Shown here: one piece after another, positions 5,195 through 35,628 of the stretch
Numbering within the stretch: position 1 is the stretch's first letter
Layout of the letters: each line of letters begins with the position of its first letter
Source: a virus
IMG/VR virus record: IMGVR_UViG_3300009507_000051
Direction: 5' to 3' (one strand)
DNA length: 35,628 nucleotides
Translations under genes and position numbers: made by a program
The notes under the pieces: model-generated
Databases searched by the model: none
Seen by the model: only the letters and a program-made list of their open reading frames with translations
What the model was told of the DNA's origin: nothing

Positions 5195-5792
5195 AAATAG
5201 AAGTGATTTATTTGATTTAATGAGAGGTGAGATAGATTTTGCATTATCAAACCTACATACATCCACTATAGCAAGGGTGACAAAAGTAAACGAAAAGACA
5301 ATAAACTGCAAAGTTATAATACCTCTTGATGTTGATGGTGAGCTTGTTCAGATGCCAGAGTTTATTAAGGTTCCACCAATATTTATGCAAGGCGGTGGAT
5401 CGTACACCGCCCACCCAATAAAGCCGGGAGATTATTGCTTGCTTGTATTTACTGAGCGTTGTTTTGATGCTTGGTACGGTGGTAGTGATGATGTGGAGAA
5501 GCCAGACTTTAGGATGCATGATTACTCAGACGGATTTGCTATTGTTGGTGTTAATCCTCTAGAGGCTGCAATATCTATACCAGAAGTTATAACTAATATT
5601 GGTGACAGCTATCATGAAGGAGATCACGAGCATAAAGGAGACTTGGAGCAGGATGGTAGTCAAAAGATAACAGGAAGTAACGACGCCAAGGATTATAAGG
5701 TTGATGGGGAAGATGGAGCAACGGGCGTTTTCTTAGACTTAAACGGAAAATCAGTAACCGTAAAGAGTGGTATAATAACAAGTATAGTGTAA
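5178..5792 (+). CDS. Baseplate central spike (Mu gp45 / Gp138-N-like)
   Basis: The N-terminal OB-like region (TSTIARVTKVNEKTINCKVIIPL...GDYCLLVFTER...DYSDGFAIVG) and the His-rich C-terminus (GDHEHKGD) resemble Mu-type spikes. The second ATG at 5184 has better spacing to the RBS GGAGA. Confidence 0.55.
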   Translation: MEMQIKNRSDLFDLMRGEIDFALSNLHTSTIARVTKVNEKTINCKVIIPLDVDGELVQMPEFIKVPPIFMQGGGSYTAHPIKPGDYCLLVFTERCFDAWYGGSDDVEKPDFRMHDYSDGFAIVGVNPLEAAISIPEVITNIGDSYHEGDHEHKGDLEQDGSQKITGSNDAKDYKVDGEDGATGVFLDLNGKSVTVKSGIITSIV

Positions 5793-5800
5793 AAAGTAAA

Positions 5801-5982
5801 GTGCAACGTTTTGTGACACCCTTATATAATAGTAATTACAAAAACGTTGCACTTACTTAATTCGCTCCGCTCACTTTCTTTTATTTTTTATTATAAGCTA
5901 TCCATTTAAAACAAACCTCAACCTCTCACTAATGGATACAAAATCAAACAAAACAAACACAGCAGCGATAGCTGCTTTTTTT
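5801..5982 (+). repeat. Structured intergenic element, copy 1 (subfamily A)
   Basis: - Inverted repeat 5801-5814 / 5838-5852.
- Invariant G-poor block 5853-5898.
- Stem 5899-5906 / 5931-5938 with a 24-nt loop.
- A-rich tract.
- GC hairpin 5961-5976 followed by a T-run. Confidence 0.9.
5961..5982 (+). terminator. Intrinsic terminator at the 3' end of element copy 1
   Basis: AGCAGC-GATA-GCTGCT followed by TTTTTTT. A-rich on the left, so it could act in both directions. Confidence 0.65.
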
Positions 5983-5985
5983 AAA

Positions 5986-6014
5986 TTGCTTTAAGGGCAT
6001 AATTATTGTATAAT
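5986..6014 (+). promoter_or_regulatory. Sigma70-type promoter TTGCTT-17-TATAAT for the baseplate, fibre and lysis operon
   Basis: -35 at 5986-5991 and -10 at 6009-6014, 27 nt upstream of ATG 6042. Confidence 0.55.
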
Positions 6015-6041
6015 AATTAATAAACTAATATCGGTGGCAAA

Positions 6042-13701: not shown

Positions 13702-14187
13702 TTATATGTATTTTAACATTTCCTTGCAGTTATGTAAAAACTCATTGCGCTCAGCTGCACCCTCATAGGTATTGTAAAATCTCTTGTATATATTCCACAT
13801 GCCATCTAAGTCATCGTACTTAGGTATTGGAGCAGGGCAACGCCTATAAACTATCCTAGCAATTGCGCAATTTAGATATAGATTACCAATCATACCTTCA
13901 GCTGGTGGCATGCGATCACAATAAGAAGCATCTAACACACAGCTCAACAACTCACGGCGGTACTTTAAGTAATTATCTATACAATCACTATAAGTTCTTT
14001 TTTCTACTTGCCACGGCCCGCACGCTGGCCCGCCACCTAATTGCTTTATGTAGCGACCGCAGTCACTTTCTTGCTTTACTGTATACAGAAGTAAAGCAAC
14101 AACATCTCTTTCACGCCCCCTATCTAAATTTAATTCCTTTACTACTGGTAGTATAATACTACTTACTAGTTGTGATGGTTCAATCAT
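13702..14187 (-). CDS. Endolysin, lytic transglycosylase / lysozyme-like
   Basis: 161 aa, RBS GAGGTG. The motif VKQESDCGRYIKQLGGGPACGPWQV resembles the catalytic Glu-Ser ... G-x-G-x-x-Q region of the SLT domain. Confidence 0.55.
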   Translation of the reverse strand: MIEPSQLVSSIILPVVKELNLDRGRERDVVALLLYTVKQESDCGRYIKQLGGGPACGPWQVEKRTYSDCIDNYLKYRRELLSCVLDASYCDRMPPAEGMIGNLYLNCAIARIVYRRCPAPIPKYDDLDGMWNIYKRFYNTYEGAAERNEFLHNCKEMLKYI

Positions 14188-14200
14188 AAGTCACCTCATT

Positions 14201-14222
14201 AAAAAGGCCGCTTTTGCGGCCT
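14201..14222 (-). terminator. Intrinsic terminator on the minus strand between the HNH gene and the endolysin gene
   Basis: The minus strand reads AGGCCGC-AAAA-GCGGCCT followed by TTTTT. Confidence 0.6.
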
Positions 14223-14228
14223 GTTAGT

Positions 14229-14744
14229 TTATGCAAAGTTTAGTAGGCCAAATTTGCCGTGTAGTCGCTTACATGCTTCATCATATGCAAGAGCCGCTTC
14301 GTGAGCAGTAGGAAATACGCCAAGTGATTTTACTTTTCCGTATCGTGTTATACGTGCTCGGAATTTATTGGTTGCAATTTTTGATACGCCTTTAAATGAA
14401 ACTGTTCCGCGTGATTCTCGATTAAAGCAGTTTTGAGAAGCAGTAACCTTACGTAGGTTTTTTAATCTGTCGTCTAATGTGTTGCGGTTGATGTGATCTA
14501 CCTGATAGCCTTTTGGTACTGCACCGTTGTGGTAGATGAAAACAAGTACTGAATTATAAAAAAGCTTTCCGCCTAATGATACTCTTACTCGACCATTATC
14601 AATAAAGCCTGCTGACTTCCCTTCGAACCTAGCGTTGAACTTAGTATTGCCTTCTCTCGACTTATATATTAATCGACCTGTCTGTTCGTTATAATCAAAA
14701 ATTTTACGTAATTGCGTTTTAGTTGGACGTTTTGTTAATTTCAT
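14229..14744 (-). CDS. HNH homing endonuclease with a C-terminal AP2-type DNA-binding domain
   Basis: HNH_3-like motif: YHNGAVPKGYQVDHINRNTLDDRLKNLRKVTASQN. AP2-like motif: FKGVSK...KFRARITRYGKVKSLGVFPTAHEAALAYDEA. Confidence 0.8.
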   Translation of the reverse strand: MKLTKRPTKTQLRKIFDYNEQTGRLIYKSREGNTKFNARFEGKSAGFIDNGRVRVSLGGKLFYNSVLVFIYHNGAVPKGYQVDHINRNTLDDRLKNLRKVTASQNCFNRESRGTVSFKGVSKIATNKFRARITRYGKVKSLGVFPTAHEAALAYDEACKRLHGKFGLLNFA

Positions 14745-14777
14745 AATAATTACCTCATATAATTAAATTTTATTAAT

Positions 14778-14829
14778 GTCTATTTGTAGACTTCAATTAT
14801 ATAATAACCTAAATAAAATCACCTTGCAA
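14778..14829 (-). promoter_or_regulatory. Early-type promoter TTGCAA-17-TATTAT plus 5' hairpin, driving the HNH gene
   Basis: On the minus strand, -35 is at 14829-14824 and -10 at 14806-14801. The leader hairpin GTCTA-CAAA-TAGAC lies at 14791-14778. Confidence 0.5.
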
Positions 14830-14879
14830 GTGTTTTTTGTAAATTATTTAATTTATTTTATATTTAATCCTTTTATCAA

Positions 14880-15047
14880 GCGCAACGTTTTGTGACACCC
14901 TTATATAATAGTAATTACAAAAACGTTGCACTTACTTAATTCGCTCCGCTCACTTTCTTTTATTTTTTATTATAAGCTACCCATTAGAACAATAGCACCA
15001 CCAACCAATGGGTAAAACATTAAACAAAACAAAACACCGCGAAGCGG
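14880..15047 (+). repeat. Structured intergenic element, copy 2 (subfamily A)
   Basis: - Inverted repeat 14880-14893 / 14917-14931.
- Stem TACCCATT (14978-14985) / AATGGGTA (15007-15014) with a 21-nt loop.
- GC hairpin 15037-15047.
- About 98 nt identical to copy 1. Confidence 0.9.
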
Positions 15048-15053
15048 TTGCTC

Positions 15054-15082
15054 TTGCTTTTATCTTTTTGTTGCTTTATAAT
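15054..15082 (+). promoter_or_regulatory. Sigma70-type promoter TTGCTT-17-TATAAT following element copy 2
   Basis: -35 at 15054-15059 and -10 at 15077-15082. Confidence 0.5.
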
Positions 15083-15167
15083 CTACAGACTAACTAACCA
15101 AAACCCCGGCAAAAGGTGAATGATATGCATAAGACAAAAAAAATATTAAATAAGTCAAATAAAAAGC

Positions 15168-15216
15168 TTGCATTCTCTTTTCATTTATTTAATAATACAA
15201 ATATGCCAAATGGCAT
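15168..15216 (+). promoter_or_regulatory. Early-type promoter TTGCAT-17-AATAAT plus 5' hairpin for the helicase gene
   Basis: -35 at 15168-15173 and -10 at 15191-15196. Hairpin ATGCC-AAAT-GGCAT at 15203-15216. The -10 region and downstream sequence ATTTAATAATACAAATATG match the promoter at 18878. Confidence 0.5.
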
Positions 15217-18004: not shown

Positions 18005-18519
18005 TGAAAACAATGACAGGTAAAGCATTTGAACAAAGGTTCAAGCAAGCCTGCGATGAGCAAGGCGTATTAATTATACGTCTTCGCGATGCAGGTTACC
18101 AAGGCGAGCAAACATCTCAAAGACGTTTTACGATAAAGAACGTTGCAGACTGTATTGTATTCGACGGAACAAAGTTTGTAGTATGTGAACTTAAACACAG
18201 AAAAAGCTCACTGGCATTTAAAGACATATCTCAATATAAAGACATCAAAAAGATTAATGATTTTATTGAGAGCAATGGCATGCACAATGCGACAGCCGGG
18301 CTACTGGTATGTTTTGGCTCAATGGACAAGATATACTGGGTACATATTGCAATGATAGATGAGCTTAAACACATGACGAGCAAAAAGTCATTTAATTTTA
18401 AAGACTGCCAAAAGCTTGAGTTAGATCATCCTTTGATGTGCATGAAGGTTGATGCGATCATACCGCCGAGAAAGCGCACACAACGCATAGATACGAGCTT
18501 TATAGGAGATGCAATATGA
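18004..18519 (+). CDS. PD-(D/E)XK nuclease, RecU-like Holliday junction resolvase
   Basis: 171 aa. The motif VADCIVFDGTKFVVCELKHRK fits D...E-x-K. The N-terminal GKAFEQRF resembles the RecU N-terminus. Confidence 0.5.
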   Translation: MKTMTGKAFEQRFKQACDEQGVLIIRLRDAGYQGEQTSQRRFTIKNVADCIVFDGTKFVVCELKHRKSSLAFKDISQYKDIKKINDFIESNGMHNATAGLLVCFGSMDKIYWVHIAMIDELKHMTSKKSFNFKDCQKLELDHPLMCMKVDAIIPPRKRTQRIDTSFIGDAI

Positions 18520-18869
18520 TAAACGCAGTATTAGGCAAAGTTACTAACGGGCCGTCTGAGTGCGTTATTGTTGGCAAATATGACAGAGGGGTTTTTACTT
18601 ATAGTTCATCTTCATATTGTAATGGTGTGTTAGATGAGGAAAAGGATTTTGCAAATATATTTGAAGTAGAAGACTATCTTAATAAGTGGTTACCTACATC
18701 TAAACTTAAGGTTTATGATATGGTATCTATAACAAGAATTTTTGAAGATATTGTAAATGATAAAAGTTTTTGTGCTTTTGATTATTATCTTCAGATGTAC
18801 GATCATGTGGAAGAGGTGGTGGATATGATAAATAATCTAAAAGAATGCTATAAATTAAGATTAATTTAA
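18516..18869 (+). CDS. Hypothetical early protein (117 aa)
   Basis: RBS AGGAG. ATGA overlap with the upstream gene. Confidence 0.6.
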   Translation: MINAVLGKVTNGPSECVIVGKYDRGVFTYSSSSYCNGVLDEEKDFANIFEVEDYLNKWLPTSKLKVYDMVSITRIFEDIVNDKSFCAFDYYLQMYDHVEEVVDMINNLKECYKLRLI

Positions 18870-18877
18870 AAAAACAC

Positions 18878-18938
18878 TTGCAATCTAATTAAGATTATTT
18901 AATAATACAAATATGGAAGGCGGAAAGTCCGCCTCCAT
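18878..18938 (+). promoter_or_regulatory. Early-type promoter TTGCAA-17-AATAAT plus strong 5' hairpin
   Basis: -35 at 18878-18883 and -10 at 18901-18906. Hairpin ATGGAAGGCGG-AAAGT-CCGCCTCCAT at 18913-18938, with one bulged A. Confidence 0.55.
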
Positions 18939-18963
18939 TAACTAAAATATAAGGTATATTATT

Positions 18964-19188
18964 ATGAACACTCAAACAAATAACTCAAAACAAGTAGCTT
19001 TCCGTATGTTACCAGTAGACCAGCAAATCGCTATCACTAAGAAGCGCAAAGAGAAGCAAGACGCTGAAGCAAATGCAATTATAATGAAGCAGTACAAACA
19101 GCGCGTACTTAGTGAAGTACTAGCAGTATCTGCATTAATTATGACAGCTACCGCAACAATCATCCTAGCAATCAACGGAGTGGCATAA
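18964..19188 (+). CDS. Hypothetical small protein with a C-terminal TM segment (74 aa)
   Basis: Conserved leader ATAAGGTATATTATTATG. C-terminal sequence VLAVSALIMTATATIILAINGVA. Confidence 0.55.
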   Translation: MNTQTNNSKQVAFRMLPVDQQIAITKKRKEKQDAEANAIIMKQYKQRVLSEVLAVSALIMTATATIILAINGVA

Positions 19189-19566: not shown

Positions 19567-19674
19567 GTGCAACGTTTTGTGACACCCTATATATATAGTA
19601 ATTGCAAAAACGTTGCACTTACTTAATTCGCTACGCTCACTTTGTTTTTCTTTTTTGTTGTGTTTCCATTGGAT
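19567..19674 (+). repeat. Structured intergenic element, copy 3 (truncated and mosaic)
   Basis: Inverted repeat 19567-19580 / 19604-19618. The G-poor block is diverged. The second stem-loop has collapsed to CCATTGGAT (19666-19674). There is no A-rich tract or GC hairpin. Confidence 0.8.
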
Positions 19675-19728
19675 TTGTCAACCTGATAGCTGTTTTTGAA
19701 ATTATTTTAATTTATTTATAAAAAAGAC

Positions 19729-19779
19729 TTGCAATGTGTTTGATATTTAGTTATATTAATAATGTACCAACGGGGTACA
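19729..19779 (+). promoter_or_regulatory. Early-type promoter TTGCAA-17-TATATT plus 5' hairpin
   Basis: -35 at 19729-19734 and -10 at 19752-19757. Hairpin TGTACC-AACGG-GGTACA at 19763-19779. Confidence 0.55.
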
Positions 19780-19809
19780 CAATATTAATTAATAAGAAGG
19801 TATACTATT

Positions 19810-20256
19810 ATGAACACTCAAATTACTAAAAACGAAAACACTGTTAGCTTTAAATATTTCAACCCTGTATCAAAATCGTTTGATGTATACTATATCAATA
19901 AGGAAAGTTTGGCGGCCACGTTAGTAACAAAAGATGGTAATGTTATCATCGCAACAGATAATTCAATGAAGCAAGTTATTTATTTTCACGACAGAGAATT
20001 TGCTACAGAGTTCGCAGAGTCATTAATGATACTTGCAGACGCTTCACCTGTTATGGTTAAATCATTCTTGGACGGAATCTTTTTCATCCGCCACAACTCG
20101 TGCCCTATGGTTATATGCAAACACCAAGGTGATTATTTTAATCTTATAATTACCATTAAGGGACACGATCAGAACTCAAAACACGGTTTGTTTGTGCAAA
20201 AAGTAAGAGTACAGACAGAGAAGCAAGCAGAATATTTAATCAACCAATTAACTTAA
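19810..20256 (+). CDS. Hypothetical early protein (148 aa)
   Basis: Conserved leader AAGAAGGTATACTATTATG. A GC hairpin (GGAGGGC-TAA-GCCCTCC, 20267-20283) follows the stop. Confidence 0.6.
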   Translation: MNTQITKNENTVSFKYFNPVSKSFDVYYINKESLAATLVTKDGNVIIATDNSMKQVIYFHDREFATEFAESLMILADASPVMVKSFLDGIFFIRHNSCPMVICKHQGDYFNLIITIKGHDQNSKHGLFVQKVRVQTEKQAEYLINQLT

Positions 20257-20305: not shown

Positions 20306-20554
20306 ATGAAAAACGCACTTAACCCAGTAGACCAACGAGCAGCCAACAACCTAAAGTCAATATGGCTACAACATAAAGAAAAAAGAAAAACAACTCAATC
20401 AGAGTTCGCGGAGTCAATTGGCATAAGTCAAAGCAAGTTTGCTTTGTACTTAAATGGCCACTACCCTATCTCTCTCAACAACCTCGTTTTCTTTGCTGAC
20501 GCATTAGACTGCAACTGCTCAGATATTCGACCAGAAGTAAAGGATAAAAGATAA
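20306..20554 (+). CDS. XRE-family helix-turn-helix regulator (Cro/CI-like, 82 aa)
   Basis: TQSEFAESIGISQSKFALYLNG matches the HTH_XRE pattern. Confidence 0.65.
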   Translation: MKNALNPVDQRAANNLKSIWLQHKEKRKTTQSEFAESIGISQSKFALYLNGHYPISLNNLVFFADALDCNCSDIRPEVKDKR

Positions 20555-20869: not shown

Positions 20870-21364
20870 ATGAACATATCCACAGAATTAAAAAAGCACG
20901 TATCAGGTGAGTTAAGTATGTACAATAACAACAATATAATAAATATTGTACGCAAAAGACTAACAAACAAAGCTAATGAAAAAATAAAACTAATGGCATT
21001 TAATGTTAATGCAGCAAGAAAGCACCCACTAGTATCAGAAGTTACTTACGGCGTGACTAGCTATCATGACGATGATGTCGAATACTCAACAACAAGAATT
21101 AAGGTTAAAGTTGAGTTAGATGAGTTTAGGACAATATACAATATAGAATGCACAGCCAACGTTTGCGATGAGCTGTGTAAGTATATGTCCGACAGATTCG
21201 GGCGGGATGGGTTTATACTTTCTAATGAAATTGTAAGCTTAAATAGTAAAGATGAGGAAAAGAGACAGATGATAATTGATTTATTAAGTAGATTTGAAAA
21301 AACCCAAGAACAACAACCATCCACCACGCCCCGAACATTCGGGGCTTTTCATTACCTAAAATAA
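20870..21364 (+). CDS. Hypothetical early protein (164 aa)
   Basis: RBS AAAAGG. A terminator hairpin is embedded in the last codons. Confidence 0.55.
   Translation: MNISTELKKHVSGELSMYNNNNIINIVRKRLTNKANEKIKLMAFNVNAARKHPLVSEVTYGVTSYHDDDVEYSTTRIKVKVELDEFRTIYNIECTANVCDELCKYMSDRFGRDGFILSNEIVSLNSKDEEKRQMIIDLLSRFEKTQEQQPSTTPRTFGAFHYLK
21328..21349 (+). terminator. Intrinsic terminator inside the 3' end of the 20870..21364 CDS
   Basis: GCCCCGAA-CA-TTCGGGGC followed by TTTT. Confidence 0.55.
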
Positions 21365-21377
21365 TTTAAAATAAAAC

Positions 21378-21432
21378 TTGTAAAAAAAAATAATATTAAG
21401 TATTATTAATAATAAGTAAGGGGAAAGGCCCT
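21378..21432 (+). promoter_or_regulatory. Early-type promoter TTGTAA-17-TATTAT plus conserved leader (cassette A)
   Basis: -35 at 21378-21383 and -10 at 21401-21406. The leader GTATTATTAATAATAAGTAAGGGGAAAGGCCCTGACCTAAAATAATATAAGG is nearly identical to the leader starting at 21786. Confidence 0.55.
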
Positions 21433-21460
21433 GACCTAAAATAATATAAGGACTAATAAA

Positions 21461-21760
21461 ATGAAATTAATATCCATAAGAATCCCAGATAATCACCACA
21501 CACCTAACACGCTAGAATCTACCGCAGGAACAGCCCTAAGGCTAATCAACGGCAGGATGGCTAACAAAGTACTGATACTACTACCAAAGGCTACGCCGTT
21601 GCGTGAAGAGCTTTTTGAGCACAATGAAAAATCAAGCGTAAAAATAATTGAAGGTTACGAGAAAGCGGCGGCGGTAGATGTTGGCGAGTTCGATCATGTT
21701 ATATATGGCCCCGGCTCGTTTAAAAGTTTTTATGAAATAATTAAAAGTAATTTAAAATAA
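21461..21760 (+). CDS. Hypothetical early protein (99 aa)
   Basis: The ORF follows the cassette A leader. RBS TAAGGA. Confidence 0.55.
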   Translation: MKLISIRIPDNHHTPNTLESTAGTALRLINGRMANKVLILLPKATPLREELFEHNEKSSVKIIEGYEKAAAVDVGEFDHVIYGPGSFKSFYEIIKSNLK

Positions 21761-21763
21761 AGC

Positions 21764-21818
21764 TTGTATTAATATCCGGTATTTAGTATTATTAATAATA
21801 AGGAAGGGGAAAGGCCCT
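21764..21818 (+). promoter_or_regulatory. Early-type promoter TTGTAT-17-TATTAT plus conserved leader (cassette B)
   Basis: -35 at 21764-21769 and -10 at 21787-21792. Leader: GTATTATTAATAATAAGGAAGGGGAAAGGCCCTAACCTAAAATAAATAAGG. Confidence 0.55.
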
Positions 21819-21846
21819 AACCTAAAATAAATAAGGTAAAAATAAG

Positions 21847-22317
21847 ATGAATAATTTAATAAACAAAATCCAAAGCCAACTAGGTAAAATCGGAACAAGA
21901 GAAAATGTTTTCGACATGCTAACAGCTGAAGAGCTTAAGGTTATCTTTATTAATAAAGAAATTAATCCAAATAATGGTTTGGCTCTTGAAGATGAGTTTT
22001 TAAACTGTAACGGCCAACTACTTGAGCAAATGACTGACTCAAAAAATTGCGACACTGATTATTTTCATGAATTATTATTAGACCATTTAGAAGATATGGA
22101 TAATTCTGAGATTATCAAAACATACACCGAACACATCAACGCAATTGAAGGTGGCGAAGTACTTAGCGATAAGATGTTTGATTTTGTAAACAAAGAAACA
22201 ACACAAGAAACACTTGAAGCTTACAACCTATATAGAGAGGTAGAGGCGGCGTTAGATGCTGACGTAATGAAAGCTATTGAAAAATACCAAGATAAAGCAC
22301 TAAACCTAATGGAATAA
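21847..22317 (+). CDS. Hypothetical highly acidic early protein (156 aa)
   Basis: By eye, roughly 35 Asp+Glu against 13 Lys+Arg. RBS TAAGGT. Confidence 0.6.
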   Translation: MNNLINKIQSQLGKIGTRENVFDMLTAEELKVIFINKEINPNNGLALEDEFLNCNGQLLEQMTDSKNCDTDYFHELLLDHLEDMDNSEIIKTYTEHINAIEGGEVLSDKMFDFVNKETTQETLEAYNLYREVEAALDADVMKAIEKYQDKALNLME

Positions 22318-22323
22318 AAACAA

Positions 22324-22341
22324 AAGCCCCGAAAGGGGCTT
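22324..22341. terminator. GC hairpin AAGCCCC-GAAA-GGGGCTT
   Basis: The A-run is upstream and there is no T-run downstream. It therefore looks more like a minus-strand terminator or an RNA 3' stabiliser. Confidence 0.4.
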
Positions 22342-22362
22342 AAAAAATAAATAAAATAAAGC

Positions 22363-22391
22363 TTGACATTAAGTTCACTTAATATTATTAT
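22363..22391 (+). promoter_or_regulatory. Promoter TTGACA-17-TATTAT upstream of the packaging and head operon
   Basis: The -35 at 22363-22368 is consensus. The -10 is at 22386-22391. Confidence 0.6.
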
Positions 22392-22422
22392 ACTTATAAC
22401 ATATAAATACCTTATACTTTTA

Positions 22423-22446
22423 CCCCTTACTTGTAAGGGGTTTTTT
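22423..22446 (+). terminator. Intrinsic terminator in the leader between the promoter and terS
   Basis: CCCCTTA-CTTG-TAAGGGG followed by TTTTTT. It lies about 25-50 nt downstream of the expected transcription start and 57 nt upstream of the terS ATG. Confidence 0.7.
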
Positions 22447-25462: not shown

Positions 25463-26315
25463 TATAACCGCAGTTAGACCAATGGAAGTGAAGACGGCTC
25501 AGCCGTCTCGCTCACTAGAGAGAAAGATGCAGGGATTTTTGTCAGCAATGATTGAAGGCATGGCCAAGACTTTTGAAAACAATACTTTCAAGAAATTAAA
25601 CAAGGGTACGGTTGAGAAATTCGAAGATAATGCAAAGGGCGTGCCAGTTGTGGTGGATGGAGTAGAATTTAAAGATGCGCAGGTTGGTAATTATGCTAAG
25701 GTGTTTTTATCATTATCTAGAAAATCTCGCCGCATGATGCTAAAGCGCTTTTCTGATAAGCGTATACATAAAATTGTTACTGATATTTTACTAAAGGTTA
25801 AGAAGCAAAACGCTGAGCATTTCTATAGTAAGGTTGAAAACATTACTGGCATTAGTCAAAGCCGTCTATCAGCCGCAGAGGCATTAAAACCTCAAACTAA
25901 TGCATTGATATTGGAAACAGCTGAATGGGCTACCAAGTTACGTGACGATGCATTAAATCAGTTTACCGCTGATACTCTTCGAGGTATGGCGCAAGGCAAA
26001 GGTATCGATGAGATTATTGAAGAATTTGGCGTACTTACAAATAAAAGAGTGACACGCGCAAAGATGGTTGCTCGTACTCAAGTTAGTACATTTAATTCTT
26101 TGCTTAGTAAAACTCGTGCGCAAAATCTAGGTATTAAAAAAGCTATTTGGGTTACATCAAAAGATGAGCGCGTTCGTGTTAGTCATGCTAAAAGAGATGG
26201 AATGGAGTTTGATTTAAGTAAAGGTTTGCCAATTTCATCAGATGATCGTCCGTTACTTCCCGGGGTAGATTATAATTGTCGCTGTGATTATAAAATGATC
26301 ATACCTGAAGAATAA
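25449..26315 (+). CDS. Head morphogenesis protein (SPP1 gp7 / Mu F-like)
   Basis: The C-terminal motif VSHAKRDGMEFD...PGVDYNCRCDY is typical of the family. The start at ATG 25449 overlaps the portal end by 14 nt. The track start at 25386 is unlikely. Confidence 0.7.
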   Translation: MAKFNITAVRPMEVKTAQPSRSLERKMQGFLSAMIEGMAKTFENNTFKKLNKGTVEKFEDNAKGVPVVVDGVEFKDAQVGNYAKVFLSLSRKSRRMMLKRFSDKRIHKIVTDILLKVKKQNAEHFYSKVENITGISQSRLSAAEALKPQTNALILETAEWATKLRDDALNQFTADTLRGMAQGKGIDEIIEEFGVLTNKRVTRAKMVARTQVSTFNSLLSKTRAQNLGIKKAIWVTSKDERVRVSHAKRDGMEFDLSKGLPISSDDRPLLPGVDYNCRCDYKMIIPEE

Positions 26316-26339
26316 TGTGAAAAAGTTCACACTTTTAAA

Positions 26340-26512
26340 GTGCAACGTTTTGTGACACCCTATATATACAATATTTACAAAAACGTTGCACTTACTTAAT
26401 TCGCTCCGCTCACTTTCTTTTATTTTTTATTATAAGCTATCCATTAAATCAACATCGTTACTAAACCAATGGATAAAACACTAGACAAAATAAAACAAGC
26501 CCCGCGCAGCGG
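26340..26512 (+). repeat. Structured intergenic element, copy 4 (subfamily B)
   Basis: - Inverted repeat 26340-26353 / 26377-26391.
- Stem 26438-26445 / 26468-26475 with a 22-nt loop.
- GC hairpin 26502-26512.
- About 113 nt identical to copy 5. Confidence 0.9.
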
Positions 26513-26518
26513 ATACTC

Positions 26519-26577
26519 TTGCAAAATAACAGTCATAGTGTTAAACTGTTGACTATGGCAAAAAAAACATATATAAT
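26519..26577 (+). promoter_or_regulatory. Two tandem sigma70-type promoters (TTGCAA-17-TAAACT and TTGACT-17-TATAAT) for the head operon
   Basis: First promoter: -35 at 26519-26524 and -10 at 26542-26547. Second promoter: -35 at 26549-26554 and -10 at 26572-26577. Confidence 0.55.
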
Positions 26578-33384: not shown

Positions 33385-33409
33385 GCGAGGTTGATACCTC
33401 GCTTTTTTT
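33385..33409 (+). terminator. Intrinsic terminator after the tube gene
   Basis: GCGAGGT-TGAT-ACCTCGC followed by TTTTTTT. Confidence 0.8.
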
Positions 33410-33435
33410 ATACCTAAAATAAATTAAAATAATAC

Positions 33436-33486
33436 TTGCATTAGTTGTTTTATTGAGTTATATTAATAATATGACAATAAGTCATA
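33436..33486 (+). promoter_or_regulatory. Early-type promoter TTGCAT-17-TATATT plus 5' hairpin
   Basis: -35 at 33436-33441 and -10 at 33459-33464. Hairpin TATGAC-AATAA-GTCATA at 33470-33486. The -10 region AGTTATATTAATAAT matches the promoter at 19729. Confidence 0.55.
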
Positions 33487-33511: not shown

Positions 33512-34495
33512 ATGAGTATTTTAAAAAAGAAACAAAAGACAAATGAAGAACTGAAAAACGAAGCGTTGAGCTACAGTGTTGATGAGCTTAAGGCAAAAGC
33601 GCAAGGTGCAAAAAAAATGTCTGCATTGAAAGGCGGACTTATTATAGCGCTATCATTGTGTTCATTATTATTTTCTTACACTCAATTCCAAGAAGCTATG
33701 GTCTGTAAGGGTATTTGCGCGGTAGATGTTAATGAAAGTATGATTAAAACAGGCTGGGCAAAAGGTGAGCAACAAAAAGAAGAAACAGTTTGGGTGGTTG
33801 ACTATAAAGGAAACTACACTCAACAAGAATCTATTTTATTTAGAATGAAACTGGATAAAATCGCAGCTATATCAAAAACAGGTGATGGCCTTATTATCAA
33901 TATCGAAAGTAACGGCGGTGATGCTATTGCATGCGCTAACGATTACGATCGAGTAGTTAAGATGCGAACAATGCATGGCCTTAAGGTTTCAGCAGTTGTT
34001 GATAGAGCAGCACACTCTTGCGGATATTATCTAGCATCTGCCGCAACATCTATCTACGCTCAGAAAGGCGCAAGCGTTGGTAACATTGGATCGGCTATGA
34101 CAATGATGACAAACCCTATTCAAGCACTGGTTAAAAAAGTAACAGGCGCAGAAGTTATTGTTATTGGCTCTACTCGTGCAAAAGAAATATTTGCTGGATC
34201 ACCACTTAAGACAAAGGAAGATCACGCCATTGTCAAAAAGTACGTAGACGCAGGTGCTAAAAACTTCTTTATGGACGTTATTAAAGGACGAGCTGGACGC
34301 ATTAACCCTAAAGATTATCCTACTGTGTTTAGTGCATACCCATTCTCGGCACGTCATGCAAAACAACTAGGCCTTATCGATGGTTTCGCAAGTATCAGCG
34401 AAATACTTCAAGGCTATCACGCCAACGGATACACAATCAAACGCATCACTATAAACGATGTAGCAAAAGCAAGTAAGCAAGTATTTGTAGGATAA
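33512..34495 (+). CDS. Membrane-anchored S49-family serine peptidase (SppA / SohB-like)
   Basis: 327 aa. N-terminal TM segment: GGLIIALSLCSLLFSYTQF. ClpP/S49-like core: INIESNGGDAIACAN...AAHSCGYYLASAATSIYAQKGASVGNIGS. The Ser sits in the position of the SppA nucleophile motif. Confidence 0.65.
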   Translation: MSILKKKQKTNEELKNEALSYSVDELKAKAQGAKKMSALKGGLIIALSLCSLLFSYTQFQEAMVCKGICAVDVNESMIKTGWAKGEQQKEETVWVVDYKGNYTQQESILFRMKLDKIAAISKTGDGLIINIESNGGDAIACANDYDRVVKMRTMHGLKVSAVVDRAAHSCGYYLASAATSIYAQKGASVGNIGSAMTMMTNPIQALVKKVTGAEVIVIGSTRAKEIFAGSPLKTKEDHAIVKKYVDAGAKNFFMDVIKGRAGRINPKDYPTVFSAYPFSARHAKQLGLIDGFASISEILQGYHANGYTIKRITINDVAKASKQVFVG

Positions 34496-34522: not shown

Positions 34523-34733
34523 AATGCCTTACTATTTTATTTGTATAATCTAACACATCCCCTTCAGTCCAATCATGTCTATTTATTTTAATGGTACCTT
34601 CAATGGCATGCTGTAGCCTTCCTATTTTGAGAACAATGCATGTAGCAATAATACCCTTACTATCCTCTAAAATACATTCATACGCTTCTGTGTGGTTGAT
34701 GGGGTCGATTCTTGTCTTGCTTGCTGTTATCAT
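34521..34733 (-). CDS. Hypothetical protein (70 aa)
   Basis: Minus-strand ATG at 34733 with RBS GAGGAAAG. The longer track ORF extending to 34838 would run into element copy 5. Confidence 0.5.
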   Translation of the reverse strand: MITASKTRIDPINHTEAYECILEDSKGIIATCIVLKIGRLQHAIEGTIKINRHDWTEGDVLDYTNKIVRH

Positions 34734-34756: not shown

Positions 34757-34785
34757 AGTATATCACAAAATGCGGTGGATGTGAA
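34757..34785 (-). promoter_or_regulatory. Minus-strand promoter TTCACA-17-TATACT abutting the palindrome of element copy 5
   Basis: -35 at 34785-34780 and -10 at 34762-34757. The -35 is 1 nt from the left palindrome arm, which starts at 34787. Confidence 0.4.
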
Positions 34786-34786
34786 G

Positions 34787-34959
34787 GTGCAACGTTTTGT
34801 GACACCCTATATATACAATATTTACAAAAACGTTGCACTTACTTAATTCGCTCCGCTCACTTTCTTTTATTTTTTATTATAAGCTATCCATTAAATCAAT
34901 AACGTCACTCAACCAATGGATAAAACATTAAACAAAATAAAACAAGCCCCGCGCAGCGG
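34787..34959 (+). repeat. Structured intergenic element, copy 5 (subfamily B)
   Basis: - Inverted repeat 34787-34800 / 34824-34838.
- Stem 34885-34892 / 34915-34922 with a 22-nt loop.
- GC hairpin 34949-34959. Confidence 0.9.
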
Positions 34960-34961
34960 TA

Positions 34962-34990
34962 TTGACTAAATTATGATCATGTAGTATAAT
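34962..34990 (+). promoter_or_regulatory. Sigma70-type promoter TTGACT-17-TATAAT following element copy 5
   Basis: -35 at 34962-34967 and -10 at 34985-34990. Confidence 0.6.
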
Positions 34991-35417: not shown

Positions 35418-35628
35418 ATGAGTTATCCAAATAGGCGCGGTTCTAACATTAGCAATAGTCAATTACTAACAAGCGATCAACAAGAAACCTTAAAGTACAT
35501 TAAGTACATAGAGGAGGACGATCAAATCGTATCTCAAAAACCTCTTGAGACCACACTTAATTCACTTTACCTTAGTTCTGCTCATAAAATATCAAGCGGA
35601 CAAGAAAACATATTCTTTACCAACCTTG
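35418..35628 (+). CDS. 5' part of the 409-aa junction-spanning gene (continues at 1..1142)
   Basis: ATG 35418 with RBS AAGGAG at 35407-35412. The ORF is open to the end of the window and is in frame with 1..1142 through the 123-nt overlap. Confidence 0.7.
   Translation, partial: MSYPNRRGSNISNSQLLTSDQQETLKYIKYIEEDDQIVSQKPLETTLNSLYLSSAHKISSGQENIFFTNL
35506..35628. repeat. Terminal overlap, identical to 1..123
   Basis: Read directly; see the feature at 1..123. Confidence 0.95.

Follow-up and report, generated by a model that had tools for sequence, protein, structure and literature searches.

Promoter-early stem-loops (PeSLs) of T4-type phages are composite terminator/promoter repeats that lie between genes (PMC2839356, PMC4122927), and the halovirus HF2 carries promoter-bearing intergenic repeats whose activity has been shown experimentally (PMC8707807). 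Pseudo-symmetric bidirectional promoters with a shared −10 hexamer are described in bacteria (PMC12825309, which cites Warman et al. 2021). Here we analyse an element of ~176 nt that is present in five copies in the viral DNA IMGVR_UViG_3300009507_000051 (35,628 nucleotides, the whole of which is called the window), and in particular the stem-loop at positions 26438–26475 within one of these copies. This stem-loop had been proposed to belong to a family of base-pairing small RNAs in which a constant scaffold presents a variable seed. Our comparison of the copies with each other and with their counterparts in related phages tips the balance modestly towards another reading, in which the stem-loop is a structural by-product within a modular, repeated intergenic control cassette and not a small-RNA scaffold.

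The five copies start at 5798 (c1), 14877 (c2), 19564 (c3), 26337 (c4, which holds the studied stem-loop) and 34784 (c5). A full copy comprises, from 5′ to 3′, a core, a 46-nt stretch, an 8-bp stem with its loop, an A-rich stretch, a small GC hairpin, and a promoter. The GC segment, T-run, and terminal CCATT are referred to as the T-arm; AATGG, the A-run, and the GC hairpin, which together are an inverted copy of the T-arm, are referred to as the A-arm. By this organisation the element is best regarded as an analogue of the PeSLs. As in PeSLs, short conserved repeats occur in many copies between genes, each with a sigma-70-like promoter close ahead of a gene, and related phages differ by rearrangements, which here take the form of module orders and orientations that change at syntenic junctions. 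The stem-loop terminator of a PeSL has its counterpart in a hairpin that is called as a terminator on both strands in c1 and on the minus strand alone in c2 and c4, and in relatives in a T-arm called on the plus strand. A second cassette class in the window is of exactly the simple PeSL kind. Unlike PeSLs, the element resides in a 35-kb myovirus with a Mu-like head that is not T4-like, has no sequence similarity to them, is longer (~176 versus ~100 nt), has an additional quasi-palindromic promoter-like core and two inverted terminator-derived modules, and sits at the boundaries of essential structural modules rather than in hyperplastic regions; its activity is predicted. Because the lineage and sequence differ, the core is symmetric, and the inverted terminators are reordered, we have not filed it as a member of the PeSL family.

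The comparison with HF2 is similarly mixed. HF2 also has two conserved intergenic repeat classes in a myovirus, with sequence and position conserved among related viruses and with AT-rich promoter motifs, and transcription from both strands is a further shared feature, which here is read from the sequence. Its repeats differ in their archaeal host and promoter type, measure 58 and 29 bp, and lack inverted terminator modules. Like the bacterial bidirectional promoters, the core has a palindromic TATATA/TATAAT centre with −35-like hexamers on both strands at 16–18 bp, and minus-strand genes lie to the left of two of the five copies. Unlike in those promoters, the arms of the core form a near-perfect 14-bp inverted repeat and the hexamer is always GTGCAA, which is weaker than consensus. 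In Staphylococcus aureus, RNAIII and the Rsa RNAs present C-rich apical loops to Shine-Dalgarno sequences. The loop studied here is likewise the unpaired, G-poor, C-containing loop of a hairpin, and c1 has CCUC motifs, a promoter-like start, and a terminator. However, the strand that would be transcribed has a proper terminator in only one of the four copies, no loop motif recurs between copies, a search of the phage sense strand gave no targets, and relatives do not conserve the scaffold. In bacteria, palindromic intergenic repeats of the Correia/NEMIS and ERIC kinds provide promoters, terminators, and sites for RNase III. They resemble the present element as imperfect palindromes of 100–170 bp in transcribed intergenic DNA that may combine a promoter, a terminator, and a processing hairpin. 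Unlike it, they reside in host chromosomes and are akin to miniature inverted-repeat transposable elements (MITEs), with terminal inverted repeats and target duplications, neither of which was found here.

A repeated element at gene-module boundaries

Because the terminal 123 bp of the window are identical (positions 1–123 and 35506–35628), it represents a complete phage genome, either circular or terminally redundant, with a length of 35,505 bp. Its gene content is that of a myovirus, with a large terminase, portal, MuF-like protein, protease/scaffold, major head protein, sheath, and tape measure. All five copies of the element lie on the plus strand, between genes and at the boundaries of gene modules, each 10–90 nt upstream of a promoter and gene start, and the cassettes head five operons. 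Copies c1 and c2 form one sub-family and c4 and c5 another, the sole difference being the right spacer of the core, while c3 keeps the 5′ half of the element only and has no stem-loop. Mean pairwise identity among c1, c2, c4, and c5 is 93% in the core, 100% in the 46-nt stretch, and 94% in the stems, as against 63% in the loop, 76% in the A-arm, and 69% in the GC hairpin. Conservation breaks sharply at CCATT, from 100% upstream to 63–76% downstream. The loop, which had been described as differing far more than any other part, is thus the most variable segment without being uniquely hypervariable.

An independent assembly of the same phage (L276; 35,560 bp, sample ERZ23491125) ends inside c4, directly after the core (position 2946 of that locus), a break point expected if the repeat confuses assemblers. 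Over the element, the sequence of a second assembly (L275) does not differ from that of the window. The elements are also the most G-poor 125-nt segments of the genome, with at most 8 G against a mean of 25.5 and with C at ~24%; the G-poorest stretches are 5790–6035, 14685–15043, 26311–26510, and 34784–34980. This excess of C over G resembles the composition of a Rho-loading region. A Rho-utilisation site was not adopted, the G-poverty being explained by the U-tract and A-tract modules and absent in relatives with inverted elements.

Rearranged modules in related phages

Relatives of the window phage were recovered through the flanking MuF-like, baseplate, and replication proteins, at 59–69% protein identity, giving a comparison of four phage lineages with the window phage included. 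One related lineage (contigs L245, L269, and L277) is a single 39.5-kb phage with 69% MuF identity, a second (L264 and L265) shows 64% identity, and a third (L247, L248, and L270, together with L274) shows 59%. All three have a core of fixed length (51–52 nt) at the same genome junctions, and more distant relatives (50–55% identity) have plain terminator-promoter junctions at those sites. The arrangement around the core varies. The window has the order core-T-loop-A. The order T-core-A is found in L264, at the MuF site of L245 (10870–11095), at the replication site of L269 (~18480–18640), and upstream of the helix-turn-helix (HTH) operon in L277 (~14360–14580). At the baseplate site of L269 (9420–9620) the order is A-core(inverted)-T, with the element inverted relative to the downstream operon, and in L245 (17812–18003) the arms flank a 62-aa minus-strand gene in place of the core, in the order T-gene-A. 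Similarly, the L270 element is the full reverse complement of the L247 element. The orientation of the element to its flanking genes is therefore not fixed, and the scaffold with its loop is absent outside the window. The constant architecture put forward in the original prediction does not extend to these homologues, which show T-core-A, A-core-T, and T-gene-A at the same junctions.

Broader searches returned no close DNA relatives among GenBank phages or in IMG/VR, and a distant search gave only short AT-rich chance matches. In IMG/VR, an exact 20-mer had no match, two 14-mers had a single chance match each, two palindrome patterns led to unrelated coding sequence or to nothing, and a protein-guided scan yielded no relative. 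A degenerate core palindrome, searched in a metagenome/genome collection that does not include the contig of the window, matched only unrelated long palindromes, and no copies of the element outside this phage lineage were found in the IMG/VR, metagenome, or genome scans. Some unrelated bacterial contigs (L253, L257, L262, L263, and L251/L254), from Thiotrichales and Parachlamydiaceae metagenome-assembled genomes and others, carry long near-perfect hairpin palindromes of the form GTGCAAC(T/G)TTTT..AAAA(A/C)GTTGCAC, without the central TATA and without arms; these may be an artefact of selection by the search pattern or an unrelated repeat family.

Terminator polarity of the arms and downstream promoters

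The A-rich tract and terminal hairpin had been interpreted as part of a layout that a base-pairing small RNA would have. In our terminator scan the A-arms are called on the minus strand in c1, c2, and c4 and on the plus strand in c1 only. The A-run and GC hairpin CCGCGCAGCGG of c4 span 26476–26513 on the minus strand, with the terminator called at 26513..26501 (TCCGCTGCGCGGG + GCTTGTTTTA). The A-run and hairpin CCGCGAAGCGG of c2 (15015–15048, minus strand) contain the call at 15048..15036 (ACCGCTTCGCGGT + GTTTTGTTTT). The corresponding A-run and GC hairpin of c5 (34923–34959, minus strand) have the architecture of c4 and were missed by the scan because they form one pair fewer. In c1, the A-run is followed by the hairpin AGCAGCGATAGCTGCT and T6 (5939–5982, both strands), which make a bidirectional intrinsic terminator (5961–5976 on the plus strand and 5976..5961 on the minus strand). 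The plus-strand 3′ end of c2 has only an interrupted U-rich tail, and c4 and c5 have no plus-strand terminator.

The relatives help to explain the other arm. The 46-nt pyrimidine-rich T-arm stretch of the window (TTACTTAATTCGCTCCGCTCAC TTTCTTTTATTTTTTATTAT AAGC) is identical at 46 of 46 positions in c1, c2, c4, and c5. In c4 this T-arm body (26392–26437, plus strand) consists of the GC segment TCGCTCCGCTC followed by the T-run and is homologous to the plus-strand terminator modules of the relatives. There the T-arm is a plus-strand intrinsic terminator, as in L245 (10870–10882, GGCGCTTTGCGCT + GTTTGTTTTG), L277 (GGGCTGCGCCC + TGTTTTGTATTG), and L270 (79–91), and the A-arm is a minus-strand terminator, as in L269 (9473..9461). 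Within L269 9420–9620, terminator modules lie on both sides of the core, and the left one alone reached the 5-pair threshold of the scan. The window T-arm has kept the T-run and lost the local stem (TCGCTCCGCTC versus GCGCTTTGCGC in L245). On these homologies, we take the T- and A-arms to be two inverted copies of one terminator-derived module, which has (A)TCCATT at its end and a G/T-rich tail behind it.

A sigma-70-type promoter lies 3–40 nt past each full copy, and a consensus or near-consensus sigma-70 promoter follows every element in the window and in the relatives, with 12 of 12 consensus positions in L245. The promoters after c4 (26549–26577) and c5 (34962–34990) both read TTGACT-17-TATAAT on the plus strand and match at 11 of 12 positions; a weaker TTGCAA-17-TAAACT lies near c4 at 26519–26547 on the same strand. 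After c1 and c2, direct reading gives a promoter-like TTGCTT-17-TATAAT on the plus strand (5986–6014, with a −35 below the scan threshold, and 15054–15082, respectively). The plus-strand promoter that follows c3 (TTGCAA-17-TATATT, 19729–19757) belongs to the second cassette class.

The stem-loop and its variation

The sequence description of the stem-loop in the original prediction holds in full. The stem is TATCCATT/AATGGATA in c1, c4, and c5 and TACCCATT/AATGGGTA in c2, where a T-A pair has changed to C-G on both sides. The four loops are exactly as quoted, with lengths of 24, 21, 22, and 22 nt and with 0, 2, 1, and 1 G in c1, c2, c4, and c5, respectively, and they are thus almost free of G as claimed. 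In c4, the 5′ side of the stem (TATCCATT, 26438–26445, plus strand) is the end of the T-arm, the 3′ side (AATGGATA, 26468–26475, plus strand) is the start of the A-arm, and the loop between them (AAATCAACATCGTTACTAAACC, 26446–26467, plus strand) would represent the distal, C/A-rich tail of the A-arm. The T-arm, stem, and loop of the other copies, all on the plus strand, cover 5853–5938 in c1 (stem 5899–5906/5931–5938, loop 5907–5930), 14932–15014 in c2 (stem 14978–14985/15007–15014), and 34839–34922 in c5 (stem 34885–34892/34915–34922). The loop of c1 contains CCTC twice and that of c2 contains CACC twice, as had been noted; such anti-Shine-Dalgarno-like strings are limited to these two copies, and the loops of c4 and c5 have no such motif. 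A C/A-rich stretch also precedes AATGG in the relatives (ACCCCAACAACACC-AATGG in L264 and AAAACAAACAACAC-AATGG in L277), with TAAAACAAAC.. in c1 and ..CACCACCAACC-AATGG in c2 as its counterparts in the window loops. The loop is homologous to this stretch, and its scarcity of G would therefore be inherited composition and not the design of a single-stranded seed.

The isolated 8-bp hairpin is weak, at −4.7 to −6.7 kcal/mol with z-scores of −1.9 to −3.5. In the minimum-energy fold it is nested in a long interrupted hairpin, where the T-run is matched to the A-run and TCGCUCC to GCGGA. For the full plus-strand element, the predicted fold has −34 to −41 kcal/mol and a first stem of 14–18 bp, and it lies below shuffled sequences (z −6.6 for the c4 element and −2.6 to −3.8 for the arm region). 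In the long hairpin, the next helix includes alignment columns 31/102, which are A-U in c4 and c5 but A.C in c1 and c2. The minus-strand RNA is predicted to be 11–21 kcal/mol more stable than the plus-strand RNA because the A.C mismatches become G.U, and wobble evidence therefore does not favour the plus strand. Copies c4 and c5 are nearly identical, and the loop of 22 nt holds four of their eight differences (p ~0.006 in a binomial calculation made for at least 4 of 7).

The double change in c2 had been taken as covariation that argues for selection on pairing. Among the four window copies, seven of the eight stem pairs are invariant and one has the double change, and 125 of 500 shuffles equal the observed covariation, so the window alone gives no statistical support. 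We estimate a chance of ~1/24 to 1/8 that two single substitutions hit paired positions with complementarity kept, and templated mutation in a quasi-palindrome could yield the paired change in c2 without selection. In the wider family, CCATT/AATGG is invariant in all eight distinct arm pairs from the window and the three related phages, and the adjoining pair is U-A in three, U-G in two, C-G in one, G-C in one, and unpaired in one (permutation estimate for this pair alone, p ~0.05). Past this pair no consistent pairing was seen across the eight arm pairs, and the shared inverted repeat amounts to 6 bp. These data support maintenance of the inverted repeat beyond chance in the family, which is the part of the covariation claim that stands; covariation as such lends weak support to the stem.

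A quasi-palindromic core

The core is a 52-nt quasi-palindrome, GTGCAACGTTTT..TATATA..AAAACGTTGCAC, with the pattern GTGCAA-17-TATATA-17-TTGCAC. Its geometry is 6+17+6+17+6 = 52 nt in c3, c4, and c5, and c1 and c2 have 16/18-bp alternatives. The cores lie on the plus strand at 5801–5852 in c1, 14880–14931 in c2 (with GCGCAA as the left arm), 26340–26391 in c4 (read as a first hairpin by the original prediction), and 34787–34838 in c5; in c3, which has neither A-arm nor stem-loop, the core and a diverged T-arm ending in CCATT span 19567–19670 on the plus strand. TATATA is central, an alternative TATAAT occurs at a distance of 18, and the −35-like GTGCAA is present on both strands, 16–18 bp away. 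The GTGCAA..TTGCAC pattern occurs four times against 0.08 expected, and the length is 51–52 nt in every core found in related contigs. From this we infer the geometry of two opposite-strand promoters of the sigma-70 type with a shared symmetric −10, and the core is predicted to be promoter-like.

The −35-like arms of the core also form a near-perfect 14-bp inverted repeat. In the L247 lineage, conservation is confined to the GTGCAA/TTGCAC hexamers and the central TATA, with mismatches in the rest of the inverted repeat, and the L274 core retains the left hexamer and TATA only. A conserved helix would account for this pattern less well than recognition of the hexamers. Within each phage, the left spacer of the core does not vary (CGTTTTGTGACACCCT in the window), in contrast to the right spacer, which would be the initially transcribed region. 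The invariant first G and the invariant spacer within each phage hint at a binding factor. Searches of Pfam and PHROGs found no Q, N, sigma, or Mor/C-type regulator, and the sole regulator found is an 82-aa HTH protein (20306–20554).

A proposed junction between transcription units

The proposed cassette would contain two inverted copies of a module that runs from a GC stem through a long U/G-rich tail to a final (A)UCCAUU. The plus-oriented module of the window (T-arm) would have lost its local hairpin and would abut the minus-oriented module (A-arm) tail to tail, so that the ends ..TATCCATT and AATGGATA.. pair as the 8-bp stem. The loop would be the weakly constrained distal tail of the minus-oriented module, acting as a spacer. 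The cassette as a whole would mark where one transcription unit gives way to the next: polymerases that come from the upstream operon or start at the core would enter the arm modules, the A-arm would halt leftward (antisense) transcription and in c1 transcription in both directions, and the downstream sigma-70 promoter would restart expression of the next operon. The core would add regulated, and possibly bidirectional, initiation. Firing of the core promoter, insulation of the operons by the modules, and the lack of a separate function for the stem are all three inferred.

Several observations weigh against this account. GTGCAA matches TTGACA at three of six positions, and a consensus scan did not call the core. 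The strong constitutive promoter past every cassette leaves the core without an evident role. The 46-nt T-arm is identical in four copies and resembles that of L264, a constraint that a dead terminator does not explain, and the invariance of CCATT/AATGG in every arrangement is similarly unexplained. Maintenance of pairing, or of palindrome symmetry itself, is suggested by the double change in c2 and by the four kinds of pair that the family shows next to CCATT/AATGG. Finally, c1 has the full layout of a small-RNA gene, with a promoter-like core, ~140 nt, and a good terminator.

If the junction cassette is nevertheless the correct reading, the whole genome in this lineage would be split into about five insulated transcription units by a re-usable DNA kit of three modules. 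These would be the symmetric promoter-like core, the terminator module, used in either orientation, and a promoter of the standard host type, and evolution would reorder and invert them at fixed junctions. Repeated regulatory cassettes as hubs of recombination and regulation would then extend past T4-type phages and haloviruses, and the element would offer a compact natural case of promoter/terminator insulation. It would also be a caution for the reading of sequence on its own, as tail-to-tail inverted terminators can mimic a small-RNA scaffold with a variable loop.

Alternative explanations

In the small-RNA reading, each copy would be the gene for a trans-acting base-pairing RNA of ~140 nt, transcribed rightward from the core, with the U-run/A-run hairpin as its scaffold and the C/A-rich loop as its seed, for example for pairing with Shine-Dalgarno sequences. 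The geometry of the core is plausible for the promoter of such a gene, c1 ends in a good plus-strand terminator, the plus-strand fold lies far below shuffles, the loops are predicted to be unpaired with two CCTC motifs in c1, the stem has one compensatory change, and the differences between c4 and c5 concentrate in the loop. However, the A-tract and hairpin terminate the minus strand, with no plus-strand terminator in c4 and c5 and an interrupted U-rich tail in c2; the arrangement is not conserved at orthologous junctions of the relatives; the loops of c4 and c5 lack an anti-Shine-Dalgarno motif; A.C mismatches interrupt the middle helix of c1 and c2; and the base composition of the loop appears to be inherited from the arm module. 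When exact complements of the loops were sought in the phage sense strand, the longest perfect ones were 9–11 nt, within the range of 200 shuffled loops used as a control. Rfam gave no match at the gathering threshold and, at relaxed settings, only generic microRNA-precursor hairpin noise far below the cut-offs, and a search of the window for transfer RNA and transfer-messenger RNA found none. The terminator, synteny, and target results together do not support the proposed small-RNA family, and we regard it as unlikely. A broader form, in which the five cassettes are ~140-nt phage RNA genes expressed from a GTGCAA-type promoter, acting as paralogous riboregulators or as decoys directed at ribosomes or Shine-Dalgarno sequences, with specificity evolving through the loop and with modules re-wired in the relatives, appears less likely again.

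The same features may be read as a cis-acting leader, in which a short terminated transcript from the core is read through by a modified polymerase that times the downstream operon, with a factor bound at the −35/−10 spacer, as in PR′-qut-tR′ of lambda or put of HK022. A terminator 50–140 nt past the core in c1 and in L269 9420–9620, the left core spacer that is invariant within each phage next to a variable right spacer, and the position of the cassettes at the head of five operons would all suit antitermination. This explanation is nevertheless improbable, as no Q-like, N-like, sigma, or Mor/C-type protein was detected beside the 82-aa HTH regulator, a strong independent sigma-70 promoter separates cassette and operon in every copy, the element is inverted relative to the downstream operon at one junction of a relative, and c4 and c5 lack a plus-strand terminator. 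Hairpins that process or stabilise read-through transcripts (RNase III sites, for example), and so separate or protect operon mRNAs like the intercistronic hairpins of T7, would account for the retention of both helices in every arrangement, nested or side by side, for the stability of the full plus-strand fold and its 14–18-bp first stem, and for the inverted copies in relatives, since a palindrome works in either orientation; in c1 and c4, moreover, the stretch from the upstream gene to the core contains no strong terminator. Relatives with the T-core-A order, though, have a good terminator before the core and would make little read-through RNA containing the hairpins, the inverted repeat of the core is mismatched past the hexamers in the L247 lineage and half missing in L274, the middle helix is not continuous and the apical stem of 8 bp is weak, and the conservation of the hairpin-1 loop (CCCT-TATATA) is left unexplained, all of which makes a processing role very unlikely. 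Least probable of all is selfish or recombination-generated DNA, that is, a functionless stem-loop in a MITE-like palindromic unit (core plus T-arm) or in scars of terminator recombination, homogenised by gene conversion. The drop in identity from 100% to 63–76% at CCATT, sub-families that differ only in the right core spacer, and module orders and orientations that differ among related phages at syntenic sites are as this explanation would have them, but no terminal inverted repeats bound the element (its repeats are internal), the alignments show no target-site duplications, the IMG/VR, metagenome, and genome scans found no copies outside the lineage, and junctions that are syntenic at 59–69% protein identity point to long-term retention and not to recent invasion.

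Further candidates were considered for single parts of the element and rejected. The GTGACAC..TATA loop recalls an SP6-type phage RNA polymerase promoter, but the genome has no RNA polymerase gene, its 788-aa protein being a replication protein. Small open reading frames (ORFs) from the ATG in AATGG (27, 17, and 20 codons) have no Shine-Dalgarno sequence and shrink to MGI*/MDN* in relatives. A DnaA box, TTATCCATT, matches at seven of nine positions and is not conserved in relatives; an integron attC-like site lacks an integrase and differs in its core motifs; a site for integration host factor in the loop does not fit the consensus; and a Chi-like GTTGGTGG occurs in c2 only.

Neighbouring genes and other cassettes

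Minus-strand genes lie directly to the left of c2 and c5 and of no other copy, a placement that would suit leftward initiation at the core in these two. Left of c2 are an HNH endonuclease with an AP2 domain (14229–14744, minus strand) and a 161-aa protein of phrog_3108 (13702–14187, minus strand); 13702–14744 is the only sizeable minus-strand block, and the pair is syntenic in L269 and L277. Left of c5 is a minus-strand gene for 70 aa (34524–34733), served by a good ribosome-binding site and by an extended −10 promoter of its own (34785..34757). The protein gave no family match; its homologue is the 62-aa product of the minus-strand ORF that L245 has at this junction (39% identity, E = 4e-10).

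The second, simpler class of junction cassette is present in seven copies (15159–15209, 18855–18919, 19720–19770, 21346–21465, 21732–21851, 22340–22391, and 33404–33477), each with a terminator hairpin, an A/T-rich AAAATAATTTAAAATAA, and a promoter CTTG(C/T)A-17-TA(A/T)TAAT, and some add a small GGGGAAAGGCCC hairpin before the ribosome-binding site. One of them replaces the 3′ half of the main element in c3. In addition, the region 22308–22441 contains a lone A-arm-like module (AATGGAATAAAAACAAAA + GCCCCGAAAGGGGC) that scans as a terminator of the minus strand, then a strong promoter (22363–22391) and, only ~30 nt further on, another terminator (22422–22441); it may form a very short transcription unit ahead of the small terminase gene. 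The segments 18951–18983 and 19797–19829 are 88% identical over the ribosome-binding site and first codons (MNTQ..), which suggests paralogy of the genes at 18964–19188 and 19810–20256 or a cassette-mediated duplication of their starts. Finally, an S49-family peptidase gene (33512–34495) with its own promoter cassette lies between the tail tube and tail assembly genes. In the L245 phage, S49 genes are found elsewhere and in two copies, the 3′ ends of which share a 97-nt repeat (L245 1710–1806 and 4499–4595).

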